Assembly (NCBI GenBank): GCA_964407105.1
Contig: CAYOUG010000001.1
Location: 96,227 to 160,226, forward strand
Length of the DNA stretch: 64,000 nucleotides
Direction: 5' to 3'
Source of the DNA: an uncultured Candidatus Saccharibacteria bacterium
GTDB lineage: Bacteria > Patescibacteriota > Minisyncoccia > Phycocordibacterales > CALRHW01
Position 1 is the stretch's first letter. Every line of letters begins with the position of its first letter. The translations under genes were made by a program, and so were the position numbers. The notes under the pieces are model-generated. The model was not told the origin of the DNA and made no database searches. It worked only from the letters and a program-made list of their open reading frames with translations. Below, piece by piece: positions 7,199 to 46,913 of this stretch.

Positions 7199-7271
7199 GC
7201 ACGTGTAGCTCAGTTGGTAGAGCGGTCGTCTTATACACGACTGGTCCCAGGTTCGAGTCCTGGCACGTGCA
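7199..7271 (+). tRNA. tRNA with anticodon UAU (isoleucine, AUA-decoding); CCA not encoded
   Basis: I folded it by hand. The acceptor GCACGTG/CACGTGC has 7 bp, the D-stem is GCTC/GAGC, and the anticodon stem is GTCGT/ACGAC with loop CTTATAC. The variable region is 5 nt. The T-stem is CCAGG/CCTGG with loop TTCGAGT, and the discriminator is A. Confidence 0.75.
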
Positions 7272-7401
7272 CAATGAGCAGGGCGAATTGTGCACGTGAG
7301 CAAGTGCCCAATGGCACTTGCGAACAGGACGAGAAAGGCTTTTCGTTATCGAGAGAGCGTACTCGCTTTCGAGATCGAAAAGTACCCGCGGCGGTAGCCG
7401 A

Positions 7402-12703: not shown

Positions 12704-13417
12704 TCACCGACGACGTCTATATGTGAACATTCCAAGAACAAACAAACCGAGTGCTGATGGACCAGGAACTGTCGAACCGACTGAATCGATCCAGACTTCA
12801 CCTGACCCCATATTGAAATTTACAAAACCGATCGTATCAAAACCCGTAAACGATGGACCCCCATAGAAAGCGATCCAACTGGTCCAGGAGCCTTCATTCA
12901 ATCTGTATCGAGCCGATGCGTCTTGAGAACGCCACTCGATAGTGACGAGGTTCCAGATGTTGTCGGTATAGTCATCGAAACCAACATAAACATCCAGAAC
13001 AGGGTCAATGTAGGCGACCTGACCGCTTTTCATGAACGCCAAAGTCGCTCTCGACGGACCGTCCCACGAATCCTGAAAGAGACCGAGCTGAAAATTCTCG
13101 CCGATGCTGTAGTCTCCCCATTCAGAGTGGTTCACTGTCCGAACGTAAAACGACTGACTCCCATCTGCCAGTGAAACATCACCAGTCTTGGTAATGACAC
13201 TGTCGGCAAATTGATTGCTGCTTCCGATGGCTTCAGTCCCATCAATGCCGATGCCGTCCTGAACCAACCAGGTTTCACCATTGGCCCGATCGAACCAGTC
13301 TCCCTGCCCCACTACTGGTCCACTGACGTAGGAATTGAAATTATCCACGACAATGGAAGCTTGAGCATTCGTAGCCAAAAGAAAAAGCCACATAACGACA
13401 ATCACAATCATTTTCAT
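12704..13417 (-). CDS. secreted protein with a C-terminal PEP-CTERM-like sorting signal, in a GC-rich gene
   Basis: The signal peptide is 'MKMIVIVVMWLFLLATNAQA'. The extreme C-terminus 'VPGPSALGLFVLGMFTYRRRR*' has a Pro-rich motif, a hydrophobic helix and an Arg cluster. GC is visibly higher than in the flanks. Confidence 0.5.
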   Translation of the reverse strand: MKMIVIVVMWLFLLATNAQASIVVDNFNSYVSGPVVGQGDWFDRANGETWLVQDGIGIDGTEAIGSSNQFADSVITKTGDVSLADGSQSFYVRTVNHSEWGDYSIGENFQLGLFQDSWDGPSRATLAFMKSGQVAYIDPVLDVYVGFDDYTDNIWNLVTIEWRSQDASARYRLNEGSWTSWIAFYGGPSFTGFDTIGFVNFNMGSGEVWIDSVGSTVPGPSALGLFVLGMFTYRRRR

Positions 13418-15162: not shown

Positions 15163-15729
15163 TTAATACTTTCTAACCACACCTTTTACTACAGCCGCAA
15201 TACGAAAACTTTCGCGTGGATATATCGGTTTATAATTTTTATTAGCGGGTTCGAGCCATATTTTTCCAGCCTTAATACGATAAAATTTCATTGTCCACCC
15301 ACCATCTACTTCTGCAATGACAATATCGCCGTCGCGCGCATATTCACGTTTCTCCGCAACCACCATGTCTCCTTCTCGTATTCCCTCTTCTATCATTGAG
15401 TCTCCCTTTACTTCAAGTAAATATGTATTACCTTGATCTTCAATAAGTAACTCATCGAGACTCAATGTATCGAGTGCTTCTGCTTCTGCAACAGAAGGAA
15501 TACCAGCTTCCACCAAACCAAGGACAGGAACTTGGTCAAACATATGCTTTGGAATAATTTTTCCACGGTCGTCTTTTTCAACAACACCTGCGTCGACAAG
15601 TTTGTTGATGAGCTTATAAACAGCATTTTTAGATTTGAAACCAACAAGAGACATGATCTCTTGATAGCTCGGCATACGCCGATGTTTTTTATAAAATGCT
15701 GTAATTTTTTGGAAATACTCCTCTTGCAT
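15163..15729 (-). CDS. lexA: LexA repressor
   Basis: It has an N-terminal wHTH, the cleavage-site region 'VEAGIPSVAEA', and the S24 Ser/Lys dyad ('KGDSM' ... 'MKFYRIK'). Confidence 0.9.
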   Translation of the reverse strand: MQEEYFQKITAFYKKHRRMPSYQEIMSLVGFKSKNAVYKLINKLVDAGVVEKDDRGKIIPKHMFDQVPVLGLVEAGIPSVAEAEALDTLSLDELLIEDQGNTYLLEVKGDSMIEEGIREGDMVVAEKREYARDGDIVIAEVDGGWTMKFYRIKAGKIWLEPANKNYKPIYPRESFRIAAVVKGVVRKY

Positions 15730-15747
15730 TAATTATGTTTTAAATCT

Positions 15748-15942
15748 TTACAAAAATGATACGAAACCAAATGATCGAGCGAGCCACGCACTGCGACGCA
15801 CCTGAGAAATCTGGCTACGAAGCTTTCTGTGTAAACGTGCTTCTTTTGCATATGATTGACCTTTTATAATCTTAAAATCTATTTGTTCGTTGAGTCTTTT
15901 AAGCTCATCGTGAATGGAATACACTAATTTGTTTTTACTCAT
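15748..15942 (-). CDS. small basic protein encoded upstream of, and presumably co-transcribed with, lexA; hypothetical
   Basis: It is 64 aa and sits between the LexA-box promoter and lexA. I recognised no family. Confidence 0.35.
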   Translation of the reverse strand: MSKNKLVYSIHDELKRLNEQIDFKIIKGQSYAKEARLHRKLRSQISQVRRSAWLARSFGFVSFL

Positions 15943-15997
15943 ATTATGGTGGGTTTAAATAAGTATTTGTTATGACCTTTGTATGTATACAGTATAG

Positions 15998-16013
15998 GTG
16001 AACTATCGTTCAC
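15998..16013. promoter_or_regulatory. LexA (SOS) box of the GAAC-N4-GTTC type inside the -35/-10 spacer of the lexA-operon promoter
   Basis: The box is GTGAACTATCGTTCAC, with perfect 6-bp arms. On the minus strand TTGACT precedes it by 1 nt and TATACT follows, 18 nt apart. A degenerate second box, CAACATATGTGC, lies near 16059-16070 on the divergent side. Confidence 0.6.
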
Positions 16014-16120
16014 TAGTCAATGTGGATAACATATCTGCAGAATAAAAATTTTTTACCGTCAACATATGTGCTAGAATATATAAATACAGGTCGATATATT
16101 ACAAGATATTTTGAATACAT

Positions 16121-16357
16121 ATGAACAACGAACACAACAACACCTGTACAACATGCACCGAAGGAAAAACATGTATAAAATGTTGTCAGTGCATACACCA
16201 CAGTATCATTCCAATATTGATGATTTTGTTTGCAACAACATTTCTACTTGGTTATCTAGGATATTTCGATATGCAAACAGTAAATACGATTTGGCCAATA
16301 CTTGTTGGTATCGCCGGCATTGCAAAACTTGGAGATCACAAATGTAAGTGTTGCTAA
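16121..16357 (+). CDS. small Cys/His-rich membrane protein, divergent from the lexA operon
   Basis: The N-terminus is 'CTTCTEGKTCIKCCQCIHH'. Two TM helices follow, and the protein ends with 'HKCKCC'. A terminator hairpin lies at 16369-16400. Confidence 0.45.
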   Translation: MNNEHNNTCTTCTEGKTCIKCCQCIHHSIIPILMILFATTFLLGYLGYFDMQTVNTIWPILVGIAGIAKLGDHKCKCC

Positions 16358-16418: not shown

Positions 16419-17495
16419 ATGGAAGAAAAAGTACTAAAATTTTTTACACAATCAGACACTGCGTGGGAAGCTATGCTTGAAGCTTGCGAAAAAGCTACGG
16501 TGTCCATAGATATGGAACAGTATATTTTTACCAATGACAGTATCGGCAAACGTTTTCTTGAAATTTTCATAAAAAAAAGAAAGGAGGGTGTGGCTATCAG
16601 ATTGTTGTGTGATACCGTGGGCAGTTATTATTTTTATAATTCAATAGTACCGGAAGAACTTCAGATTCTTGGCATTGAAATACGTTTTTTTAATATCATC
16701 GATCCGTGGCGTATTGGCAACTTTTTTTCTTGGTATTTTAGAGATCATAGAAAAATACTCGTGGTAGACGGTATGGTGGGTATTATTGGTGGCGTTGGTA
16801 TTCGCGAAGATATGGCTTTTTGGCGAGATACTTGTGTACAAATGAACGGTGAGGGTGCACAAGAAATGCAACACACATTCAACGATATGTGGAGACTTTC
16901 TGCGCGAAAAAATATTTTTGAACGTATCAAACAATCAAGAATTGTGACAAAAAGTAAATATGTTGTCACCAATGCCCCCTACCCTCGCCGACGTTTTTTG
17001 TATCGCCAACTTATTAATACTATTCGTGGAGCAAAAAAATCTGTATTACTCACAACGCCATATTTCGTGCCAAACCCACATCTTGTTTGGGCACTAAAAT
17101 TTGTAGCGAAACGTGGTGTCGACGTGCGCATCATTGTTCCACATACTTCGGATAATATTCTAGTAAATCGTGCTTCCCACAGTTTCTTTTTTGATTTGTT
17201 ATCGAGCGGTATACGTATTTATGAATATTCTGGAAATTTTATTCATACAAAAACAGCTATTGTAGATGGACGATGGTGTACATTTGGAAGTTTAAATTTT
17301 GATAATCTCAGTTTCACTTATAATCACGAAGCAAATATTATTTCCACAAACAATATTTTTGTAAACACACTTACAGAACATTTTGAAAATGATTTAGAAA
17401 AATGTAATGAGGTACATATTGATGATTGGATTAAACGACCTTTTTCATGGAAATTTCGAGAGTTTTTAATTCTTCCTTTTAGACGTTTTTTATAA
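16419..17495 (+). CDS. phospholipase D family protein (cardiolipin synthase-like, two HKD motifs, no TM segment)
   Basis: The first HKD motif is 'RDHRKILVVDG' and the second is 'FIHTKTAIVDGRW'. 'GSLNFDNLS' follows. Confidence 0.8.
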   Translation: MEEKVLKFFTQSDTAWEAMLEACEKATVSIDMEQYIFTNDSIGKRFLEIFIKKRKEGVAIRLLCDTVGSYYFYNSIVPEELQILGIEIRFFNIIDPWRIGNFFSWYFRDHRKILVVDGMVGIIGGVGIREDMAFWRDTCVQMNGEGAQEMQHTFNDMWRLSARKNIFERIKQSRIVTKSKYVVTNAPYPRRRFLYRQLINTIRGAKKSVLLTTPYFVPNPHLVWALKFVAKRGVDVRIIVPHTSDNILVNRASHSFFFDLLSSGIRIYEYSGNFIHTKTAIVDGRWCTFGSLNFDNLSFTYNHEANIISTNNIFVNTLTEHFENDLEKCNEVHIDDWIKRPFSWKFREFLILPFRRFL

Positions 17496-17572
17496 AAATA
17501 TAAAAAAGCCGATCGCACAAACATGCGAACGGCTTTGGGTGATGCGGAGTGTTTTTTCAATTACACCGCACC

Positions 17573-18025
17573 CTAGATTTTGTGAGGTTCGCCGTGATTG
17601 CGGCAAGGACTATGTGGTGAATGACCACCACAGTCACAGGTATTTGATCGGCCGAGATTACGACAGGAACCGAGTTTCTCACAATCACAGGTATGTGGTC
17701 GACCAAGATGTGATCCGTCTTCATGTGTCGCACCACCATGCGCGTTGTTTGCCGATGGTTGGCGACATGACAAGTCATCGAACAACGGAGTCTCTTGGAT
17801 CTCTGTGGTTGCAGCGAGTAGAGTCCCCGCCGCTTTAAATAGAGCCCGATTCAATTCTTCTGAACTCCCTTCGGCGATCTGTCTGAGTTCTTCTGGGGTG
17901 GCCCGTCTTGACGCTAGCGCCACCAAAACCCGCCTAGCAATCAATAGTCCCCAAAACGCCATCTCGCAACTCTCAGCTCTTTGCTTTGGCATTTTGTTAA
18001 GCTCAACACTATCACTACCGCCCAT
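17573..18025 (-). CDS. Cys/His-rich hypothetical protein in a GC-rich island
   Basis: AGGAGG lies 6 nt upstream of the ATG at 18025. The C-terminus is 'HTCDCEKLGSCRNLGRSNTCDCGGHSPHSPCRNHGEPH'. The region is clearly GC-richer than its neighbours. Overlapping ORFs on the opposite strand look less gene-like. Confidence 0.4.
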   Translation of the reverse strand: MGGSDSVELNKMPKQRAESCEMAFWGLLIARRVLVALASRRATPEELRQIAEGSSEELNRALFKAAGTLLAATTEIQETPLFDDLSCRQPSANNAHGGATHEDGSHLGRPHTCDCEKLGSCRNLGRSNTCDCGGHSPHSPCRNHGEPHKI

Positions 18026-18190
18026 CAGACACCTCCTGCCCCTTTTAAGGGCAAAAAAGAAACTGAGGAACAAATTTCATCTATATGTATAACACAAAAA
18101 ACCCTTATTTGATATGTCTCAGACCACTTGCTCTATTTTCAAAACAATGCTATATTTTCTTGACGTTATTAGGTTATTTTTATACACATA

Positions 18191-36518: not shown

Positions 36519-37091
36519 TCACTTGGATGTGTCAGCTTGGTCCAGTGAGCGGTCCAACTCTTCTCGCGCGGCCTTCTGCGAAGCTTGGAGCCAATCCGTC
36601 CAAGATGTCCACTGCGAAGATGGGAGCGGTGGCTTGAGAACAAGCAGTTTGTCGCCCCCTAGTCGCTTCGCGGTGGAACCGGTCAACACCATCACCACAT
36701 AACGCACCGGGTGATGATTCAGCTCTTCAAGCATGCTCCCCGTATTGCGCGGAGACATTTTACACCTGGTCATATGACTCCACGGCTTCCAGAAAACTGG
36801 CGGTCGAACCATCTCAAGATCAGAATTAAGCCACACATCACTCTTCCCCACCAGCAGTACTCCAAGTACAGCGTGATGACCCAGCTCGTGGAAACCCGCA
36901 GGGCGCACATACATATCCGACAAGGTTGCCGGTCGCACCTTGATTGAGCGGATCTTGTTGGGATAGAAAGCAAGCCATGGTAGCCTTGCCCTATATCCCT
37001 CCAGACCAGTCCCAGAAAGAGGTTCGAGTTCGTATATCTCATTGAACATTTTCTCGATTTCTGGTGAAAAAAAATACTCTGGGTAAATCAT
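36519..37091 (-). CDS. HExxH zinc metallopeptidase-like protein (possibly ImmA/IrrE-M78-like), in a GC-rich gene
   Basis: The motif is 'YVRPAGFHELGHHAVLGVLL'. AAGGAG lies 8 nt upstream of the ATG at 37091. A TTGACA-containing promoter lies upstream. GC is markedly higher than in the flanking str-operon spacer. Confidence 0.5.
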   Translation of the reverse strand: MIYPEYFFSPEIEKMFNEIYELEPLSGTGLEGYRARLPWLAFYPNKIRSIKVRPATLSDMYVRPAGFHELGHHAVLGVLLVGKSDVWLNSDLEMVRPPVFWKPWSHMTRCKMSPRNTGSMLEELNHHPVRYVVMVLTGSTAKRLGGDKLLVLKPPLPSSQWTSWTDWLQASQKAAREELDRSLDQADTSK

Positions 37092-37291
37092 TCCAAATCT
37101 CCTTCGTGGCACAGCCACTTTGTAGAAGCGCACAGCACTTCATAAGTAAAGAACGGGTAAAGCACGGCTTTACCGCCAAAAACATAATATAACAAAAGTA
37201 TATTTTGTCAAATAGAATTACCGCCGGTATCACGAGGTTTCTTTATAACTTCTTTAGGGAAACTTTAGGAAATATATGATTCTATTTAGGG

Positions 37292-46247: not shown

Positions 46248-46913
46248 ATGACCAAACTTGAACGCCTGTTCTTTGATGGTAGGGTGTCACCACTACTCTT
46301 GAGATTGTGGTGCCCAATAGATGGTCACAAAATGGTGAAGATGTGGTACAAGAACAGAAATGAGGGGGCGTTCTTCTCAATCATCTTCTTGTTTTGTACG
46401 GCTTTCTTTGTTTTCAAGTACATTACAACTTCTACTATTTTTTGGCACAACGGTGATTTTGGCACCTCCAGCATCAGCCTGCTCGAATTGGGGTTGATCT
46501 GTATCCCTTACGCCATGTTTGGTTTTTCTGGACTTTTCGTGTTCAAAATGCTTTTACGCAACCTCCACTACAAAACAGATCCATTCGAAGACGTAAGCAA
46601 ATTCCCTGATACTAAATTCTTTGACGCCTGCGACAGGCTAGCAGAGATTTTAGAAATTAGCACCGCAGGATACGCGAGCAAGGAGTGGATCAGACAAGCA
46701 GTAGACACACATCTCGTAAGAATCGGTCGACATGTGGTCGATGAAGAAAAGAGTGGAGTAAGAGACTCTGAAACATTAGAAGAAAACCGAAAAAAAATGA
46801 GAGAAGATCACAGCTTTCTGGTAGATAATTTTCCAGCGGTTGTGGACGGAACCTTCAATAGATATTACCAAATAGCAGAAGAAAAATGGGCTGAGGAAAA
46901 CAGCCCAACTTAA
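46248..46913 (+). CDS. membrane protein (2 TM helices), hypothetical, in a moderately GC-richer gene
   Basis: AAGGAA lies upstream of the ATG. A terminator lies at 46946-46982. Confidence 0.45.
   Translation: MTKLERLFFDGRVSPLLLRLWCPIDGHKMVKMWYKNRNEGAFFSIIFLFCTAFFVFKYITTSTIFWHNGDFGTSSISLLELGLICIPYAMFGFSGLFVFKMLLRNLHYKTDPFEDVSKFPDTKFFDACDRLAEILEISTAGYASKEWIRQAVDTHLVRIGRHVVDEEKSGVRDSETLEENRKKMREDHSFLVDNFPAVVDGTFNRYYQIAEEKWAEENSPT

Follow-up and report, generated by a model that had tools for sequence, protein, structure and literature searches.

The Cheo box of Bacillus subtilis, CGAAC-N4-GTTCG, places a palindromic GAAC-N4-GTTC core inside the promoter of lexA itself, and the known LexA proteins are S24 autopeptidases with an Ala-Gly cleavage site and a Ser/Lys dyad. 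Small single-pass membrane proteins that inhibit division during the SOS response are encoded divergently from lexA in several monoderm bacteria, namely YneA in B. subtilis, SosA in S. aureus, DivS in C. glutamicum and ChiZ (Rv2719c) in M. tuberculosis. LexA autoregulation through GAAC-N4-GTTC is textbook, and the SOS network of Patescibacteria has already been analysed (Sanchez-Osuna, Barbe and Erill, Environ Microbiol 2017, PMID 28618189, as cited in PMC8565304); joint control of SOS promoters by DnaA and LexA is described for uvrB, recN and dinJ of Escherichia coli (PMC6015884). The locus described here, at positions 15163-16357 of a 64,000-nucleotide (nt) stretch of contig CAYOUG010000001.1 (hereafter the window), adds a clean example of the autoregulatory arrangement, in which a lexA gene and a small open reading frame (ORF) share an operon and lie back to back with a gene for a Cys-rich membrane protein. 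It shares with the B. subtilis system the palindromic core within lexA's own promoter, and with known LexA proteins the S24 autopeptidase architecture, cleavage site and dyad. Its variant features are invariant GT...AC flanks (GTGAAC-N4-GTTCAC) in place of the C...G of the Cheo box, an operator that fills the whole spacer between the -35 and -10 hexamers, an obligatory small gene paired with lexA in every locus, and a conserved DnaA-box-like element.

The promoter was compared between the window and 25 loci from different species (L001-L025, ~8 kb each, with small-protein identities of 38 to 83%) that had been fetched through homology to the small ORF, giving 26 loci in the promoter comparisons; a 92%-identical strain (L052) served as a close comparison for the window. 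The operator GTGAAC-TATC-GTTCAC (GTGAACTATCGTTCAC) lies at 15998-16013, between a -35 hexamer TTGACT at 16015-16020 and a -10 hexamer TATACT at 15991-15996, both on the minus strand, on which the order from 16029 to 15991 reads TTATCCACA-TTGACT-a-GTGAACGATAGTTCAC-c-TATACT. This promoter, TTGACT-N18-TATACT, is a 10/12 match to sigma-70, and its 18-nt spacer consists almost wholly of the palindrome. The -35/operator/-10 layout was identical in 26/26 loci, with a -35 consensus of TTGaC.G directly abutting the operator (one-base variants such as TTGCA or TTGTTG occur in individual loci) and TATA(C/A)T situated 0-1 nt past it. Every related locus contained exactly one perfect copy of GTGAAC-N4-GTTCAC (25/25), always 26-190 nt upstream of the operon, and the central N4 differed freely between loci while the GT...AC flanks were invariant. 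In L052, everything from the DnaA-like box to the -10, both included, was also unchanged. Given the single perfect copy per locus, the fixed promoter layout and the variable centre, GTGAAC-N4-GTTCAC is read as the phylogenetic footprint of an operator filling the entire -35/-10 spacer, a geometry that is the classical arrangement for steric autorepression.

A preliminary description of this DNA had placed a LexA box between TTGACT and TATACT, ahead of the small ORF and lexA, and this was borne out at 15998-16013; its proposal that the operon is autoregulated through that box is supported by the comparative footprinting in all 26 loci. Following established LexA biology, a LexA dimer on the operator would block RNA polymerase and so repress its own operon, and DNA damage would lead to RecA-stimulated self-cleavage of LexA that frees the promoter. 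Release of the promoter would then cause the small protein and new LexA to be produced together. Overall, the region from 15748 to 16029 is very probably the control region and first gene of a minus-strand operon, encoding the small protein and then lexA, with LexA autorepression, a putative DnaA input and an independently expressed Cys-rich gene alongside.

Beyond the lexA operon, further sites were looked for in the window and in related DNA. The operator at 15998-16013 is the sole perfect copy in the 64-kb window, in which recG and recJ are without a site, and recA, uvrA and dinB lie outside it. Across 352 kb of related Paceibacteria DNA the sole one-mismatch operator was GTGAACTAGTGTTCAG (L010, 7080-7095), situated 35 nt upstream of a gene for a ribonucleotide-reductase beta-like protein (NrdB-like, with an ATP-cone); it is missing from the 89%-identical orthologous region of L008, and a uniform-base estimate predicts ~0.8 such sites by chance against the one seen. 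Ribonucleotide reductases are said to figure in the patescibacterial SOS network according to a 2017 analysis from the Erill laboratory, which is taken here as an unconfirmed lead only. The short core GAAC-N4-GTTC was not enriched in the window, at 2 copies against 0.93 expected, and the flanks of the second copy, at 46260, mismatch the conserved operator; weaker operator matches (up to three mismatches) were likewise not in excess, with 13 found in the window against 27 expected by chance.

The lexA gene (15163-15729, minus strand) encodes 188 aa comprising a winged-helix DNA-binding domain and an S24 autopeptidase. The protein matched Pfam S24 (PF00717) at 2.2e-26, scored 23.7 bits against LexA_DNA_bind (PF01726), which is exactly the cut-off of that model, and reached 126.2 bits against the NCBIfam equivalog TIGR00498 (cut-off 110.95), which assigns it to the LexA repressors (TIGR00498 / COG1974). 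It aligned over its full length to structures 3k2z and 7b5g (LexA of T. maritima and E. coli), with the cleavage site VEA75-G76, GDS111M and TMK148 in register with A84-G85, S119 and K156 of the E. coli protein. On these alignments the 188-aa protein is a bona fide LexA that retains the Ala-Gly site and the Ser/Lys dyad, and autocleavage is predicted.

The first gene of the operon (15748-15942, minus strand) encodes a 64-aa basic protein predicted to form a helical hairpin and is separated from lexA by 18 nt. The small ORF adjoins lexA in 25/25 species loci, and also in L026 and L048-L053, at a distance of 0-25 nt in most loci. The order is reversed in L020 and L022, where lexA comes first and the small ORF second behind the same operator, and in L014 and L023 an extra, diverged paralogue of the same helix and hydrophobic-tail design lies between the two (L014, 4198-4425; L023, 4164-4370), resulting in a three-gene operon. 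The family alignment revealed a core with invariant polar residues, ELxxLNEQIDxKIIxGxxYxxEARRHKxL, conserved at the amino-acid level down to 38% identity, after which come a basic linker that varies in length and a C-terminal tail that is short and hydrophobic. The family has a median isoelectric point of 10.6 and a net charge of +8, and the longest uncharged stretch at the C-terminus is 7 residues in the median and at most 12. The AlphaFold2 (AF2) model of the 64-aa protein, with a predicted local distance difference test score of 85.6, contains helices at residues 3-27 and 32-61.

The family counts at least 249 clusters when grouped at 90% identity, and 359 clusters were obtained at 50%, all of them stand-alone proteins of 48-147 aa with no name and no Pfam domain. 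Domain fusions were considered and rejected, the long database entries being mis-called starts that read through the promoter; in these extensions the operator appears in translation as GE..FTY or VN..S, and the upstream 9-mer often as YPQ or IHK, which indicates that the same promoter is present in still more distant family members. The comparison points to an unannotated Paceibacteria family that is linked to lexA in every locus checked and, judged by that position, would be co-induced with LexA.

The notion that the 64-aa ORF is no real gene, or serves lexA only as a leader peptide or as an upstream regulatory ORF, draws on its shortness, its position 0-25 nt ahead of lexA in most loci and the lack of annotation in all libraries. 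It is contradicted by the invariant polar core with its conservation down to 38% identity, by the diverged paralogues in L014 and L023, and by the confident fold prediction and the 359 clusters at 50% identity. A leader-peptide role in particular is excluded by the reversed gene order in L020 and L022, where the ORF lies downstream of lexA, and the notion as a whole is scarcely credible. In five loci the first start codon of the operon lies only 6-8 nt past the -10 (the small ORF in L008, L010 and L017, and lexA in L020 and L022), a distance at which the mRNA is probably leaderless. Within the window, there was no Shine-Dalgarno sequence at the small ORF, lexA or the Cys-rich gene.

Like YneA, SosA, DivS and ChiZ, the 64-aa protein is small, lineage-specific, tied to lexA and without sequence conservation across phyla, with LexA control in its case judged from position. 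It differs from them in being encoded in the same operon as lexA and in being soluble and basic, it has no sequence similarity to them, and with an uncharged tail of ~7 residues it does not qualify as membrane-spanning. A tentative interpretation, with a little under even confidence, is that the small protein is an unrecognised, obligatory SOS component of Paceibacteria. It would be produced only alongside LexA, its promoter would integrate DNA damage with replication-initiation status, and it would act as the checkpoint effector of the lineage for damage and replication or as a partner of LexA. The weakest step of the overall account is the function of this protein, which is taken to serve as effector or partner of the LexA response through protein-protein contact. 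Its function is a guess from position, as searches by sequence and fold returned generic hairpins only and no informative relative; no match was obtained in Pfam, NCBIfam, PHROG or PDB. The tail is also below the length of a transmembrane (TM) helix and only weakly amphipathic, and both of these results count against the proposed role.

Two specific roles rank highest for the small protein. A checkpoint-type inhibitor of division or replication is possible, with a probability clearly below even, and a modulator of LexA or RecA is rather doubtful. A rival proposal is that the protein, rather than being a downstream effector, is a stoichiometric partner of LexA and acts as co-repressor, as stabiliser or by modulating RecA-dependent cleavage. 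Its gene shares an operon with lexA throughout the loci examined, mostly at a distance of 0-25 nt, which is a pattern typical of proteins that form complexes, and a division inhibitor expressed from a leaky, autoregulated lexA promoter would presumably be costly. However, known LexA proteins need no partner and the hydrophobic C-terminal tail would be left unexplained; a stoichiometric partnership is considered rather doubtful.

The novelty of the operon is that lexA in a large uncultivated class with tiny genomes was never alone in any locus examined and shared its operon with a small unannotated protein. Such strict linkage in reduced genomes usually marks a functional dependency. If the dependency is real, it would point to a component missing from the SOS response, or from the coupling of replication to damage signalling, in bacteria of the candidate phyla radiation (CPR). 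The protein is short and easy to synthesise, and together with a DNA fragment of 45 bp it lends itself to tests in vitro or in a surrogate host.

A second putative regulatory input is the DnaA-box-like 9-mer TTATCCACA (16021-16029, minus strand), which is identical to the consensus, matches the DnaA-box pattern TTATNCACA and directly abuts the -35. A 9-mer of this kind was found upstream of the -35 on the same strand in 25/26 loci, exact in 18 and with one mismatch in 7, against a background expectation of 0.011 per locus. Loci of the window's clade have no gap between it and the -35 (0 nt), most other loci have one of 9-10 nt, and in L017 the gap is 20 nt. The spacing is 0, 9-10 or 20 nt in 22/26 loci, and these common values correspond roughly to whole helical turns, as expected for a factor facing RNA polymerase. 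On established DnaA biology, binding of DnaA to the 9-mer, whose centre lies near -40, -50 or -60, would add an input from replication status. The E. coli promoters of uvrB, recN and dinJ similarly combine a consensus DnaA box with a LexA box in one promoter region; here, by contrast, the promoter is that of lexA itself, a single box lies upstream of the -35 mostly in helical phase, and the arrangement is conserved across a whole CPR class. A lexA-operon promoter that carries a canonical DnaA-box sequence, mostly in helical phase, is the other new feature of the locus.

Two points count against a DnaA input: four loci depart from the helical phasing, with spacings of -2, 6, 7 and 7 nt, and DnaA is suggested as the binder of TTATCCACA only by the match to the canonical box. 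The 9-mer could instead serve a different regulator as operator, perhaps even the small protein, whose strongly basic character could allow it to contact nucleic acid, or it could be an upstream promoter element peculiar to this operon. In most loci the box stands alone and not in a cluster, which would agree with this. On the other hand, 18 of the 26 loci match the canonical 9-mer at 9/9 positions and 7 more at 8/9, L021 has two tandem copies, and the 9-mer is no general promoter feature, with a sole copy in the 64-kb window. Recognition of the DnaA box is also widely conserved among bacteria, and an identity other than a DnaA box is considered unlikely.

On the plus strand, at 16121-16357, lies the gene for a 78-aa Cys/His-rich protein with nine Cys residues, two predicted TM helices and a CKCC end. 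The preliminary description had recognised the Cys clusters, the two TM helices and the CKCC end correctly but had also regarded the gene as SOS-regulated, through a degenerate second LexA box overlapping its promoter, and this part did not hold. The putative box, CAACATATGTGC (16060-16071), is no operator, and its right end is the TG of the extended -10 of the Cys-rich gene. As a LexA box it was rejected: it deviates from the operator at 4/12 positions and falls outside the 13 sites with up to three mismatches, it carries two substitutions in L052 (giving CAATATGTGTGC), a strain in which the true operator is unchanged, and it is missing upstream of the orthologue in L002-L005 and L048. The equivalent positions in those loci are occupied by the T-run of a terminator followed by a conserved extended -10, TGnTAnAAT.

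The further suggestion that the two-TM protein is a toxin or division inhibitor induced by SOS, repressed by LexA through CAACATATGTGC or the shared main box, has in its favour that the gene is divergent from lexA in the window, with 178 bp between the start codons, that yneA, sosA, divS and chiZ are divergent from lexA in Firmicutes and Actinobacteria, and that CAACATATGTGC overlaps the -10 region of the gene. Against it stand the mismatches, substitutions and absences of the box described above, together with the genomic context of the gene in relatives. Close relatives with the Cys-rich gene have 500-650 bp of variable DNA, a terminator and a separate promoter between it and the lexA promoter, and L001 and L006 are without the gene. 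Among 22 metagenome loci encoding a homologue, in which lexA, the small ORF and the box were sought within 4 kb, any of these was found in only one (the close relative L026). The centre of the true operator lies ~79 bp upstream of the likely start site, as positioned from the conserved -10, which would be too far for steric repression. An SOS-induced toxin is thus highly improbable, and the Cys-rich gene is, on this comparative evidence, an independent gene with its own promoter, outside the LexA circuit, and apparently with its own terminator. Its direct adjacency to lexA in the window was confirmed by two independent assemblies and is, judging from the relatives, a derived state. The lead of an SOS-induced Cys-rich membrane toxin is removed by these results, and the protein is better viewed as a separate family with CxCxHH and CxCC termini that are predicted to be cytoplasmic.

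The ORF is conserved, with 7 database homologues in addition to the 22 metagenome loci. Near-invariant CxCxHH before the first TM helix and CxCC at the C-terminus characterise the family, and the AF2 helices of the window protein span residues 29-46 and 51-71. Comparison with L052 revealed 9 synonymous and 4 non-synonymous changes, with every Cys kept. The CxxC...CxxCC stretch of the window protein is one of several independent, lineage-specific N-terminal Cys-rich expansions, which are also seen in L028 and L042; the Cys-rich extension at the N-terminus is very long in L042, where the whole protein contains 12 Cys. Tandem duplicates of the gene were observed in L040 (3723-3947 and 3974-4177) and L042 (2878-3183 and 3711-3959). 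The exact sequence of the window protein is missing from the protein collection, and the ORF was left uncalled in two assemblies of the same or closely related species.

The closest described domain is the two-helix domain of LiaI and LiaF, which is likewise small and forms a hairpin of two TM helices within ~40 residues. The window protein scored 26.5 bits against LiaI-LiaF-like_TM1 (PF18917) and 22.1 bits against LiaF-TM (PF22570), with a cut-off of 27, and among 28 relatives at E<=0.01, 26 matched PF22570 and 19 matched PF18917; one relative (P0007) carries both in its precomputed annotation. Unlike LiaI and LiaF, the Cys-rich protein has CxCxHH and CxCC termini, which are a feature of neither. 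The K+R value is 0.07 for the loop against 2.0 and 2.7 for the termini of the Cys-rich proteins, and because the loop is almost without Lys or Arg both Cys/His clusters are predicted to be cytoplasmic. Cys pairs near both ends also face the cytoplasm in MerF, which is cited as an analogy only. The two predicted cytoplasmic Cys/His termini most likely bind a thiophilic metal or form a redox or iron-sulphur site. No mer, cop or lia genes were found near the Cys-rich gene, the recurrent neighbour being a cardiolipin-synthase-like enzyme.

The gene's own promoter is represented by the extended -10 TGcTAGAAT (16069-16077, plus strand), of a TGnTAnAAT type kept in L002-L005, L048 and many metagenome loci. 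An A+T-rich leader follows, in which the motif GGTCGA (16089-16094, plus strand) lies ~27 nt upstream of the start codon and recurs in relatives. Among the 22 listed loci, 11 have GGTCG, mostly as GGTCGA, at a distance of 24-34 nt ahead of the ATG; the motif is likewise present in the window and L002-L005, and a GGCCGA variant occurred in 3 further loci. The leader yielded no consensus RNA structure. AAAGGTC, which resembles this motif, stands after the lexA-operon -10 in L014, L023 and the clade of the window; neither ACAGGTCG nor a -10 followed by AGGTC is a general feature of promoters in the window.

Downstream of the Cys-rich gene, at 16419-17495 on the plus strand, is the gene for the cardiolipin-synthase-like enzyme of the phospholipase D (PLD) type, which matched Pfam PLDc_2 at 3e-42 and the NCBIfam cardiolipin synthase models below their cut-offs. 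It is the most frequent conserved neighbour and lies directly downstream of the Cys-rich gene in the window, L002-L005, L026, L027, L035, L040 and L048.

The variable DNA between the lexA promoter and the Cys-rich or PLD gene forms a hypervariable segment in L001 (3356-4000), L002 (3296-4000), L003 (3403-4000), L004 (3382-4000), L005 (1523-2177), L026 (2873-3692) and L048 (3340-3960), and the window is without such a segment between the lexA promoter and the Cys-rich gene. The segment is rich in G+C in most relatives, locally up to 55-60% against ~38%, and contains orphan ORFs that are non-homologous between close species, several of which end in a Cys-rich tail (CCGKGHCDGKC, CSGKKCGHCVEC or CGGDNCGKCPMC) followed by a terminator. 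In the window, a unique G+C-rich island (~52%) lies at 17496-18130, between the PLD gene and infC, and harbours an ORF on the minus strand (17573-18073). This ORF has an internal ATG preceded by a strong AGGAGG, its C-terminal tail is rich in Cys and His, and it has a terminator; neither the island nor its ORF had a match in Rfam, Pfam, NCBIfam or PHROG. A different, shorter insert occupies the same spot in L048. The G+C-rich segments beside the locus were considered as RNA genes and rejected, with no Rfam match (at gathering thresholds or E<=1) and a weak fold z-score of -2.9, and their ORFs had no match in Pfam, NCBIfam or PHROG. Elsewhere in the window, two ORFs at 12704-13417 and 36519-37133 (minus strand), which encode 237 and 204 aa and are likewise rich in G+C (locally 53-55%), resemble these orphan genes near lexA and were without a Pfam or PHROG match.

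Scans of viral contigs for the combined operator and promoter pattern gave 0 matches in one case and 27 in the other, mostly within coding sequence in a single group of phages; homologues of lexA or the small ORF did not accompany these matches, which are uninformative. Six phage contigs of one group (L061, L065, L067, L072, L078 and L079) carry TTTGGT-GTGAAC-N4-GTTCAC-CTATAAGT in an apparent intergenic promoter, and this palindrome could be an operator of the LexA or CI type.

The window as a whole has a G+C content of ~38% and encodes a ribosomal-protein cluster, transfer-messenger RNA with SmpB, FtsH, RecG, RecJ and type IV pilus genes. The nearest relatives of its proteins come from metagenome-assembled genomes labelled Candidatus Paceibacterota, Parcubacteria, Zambryskibacteria or Vogelbacteria, and the window is accordingly part of the chromosome of an uncultivated member of the Paceibacteria (CPR/Patescibacteria). 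At 7199-7272 it also encodes a tRNA-Ile whose anticodon is UAU (tat); reading AUA in this way is uncommon in bacteria.

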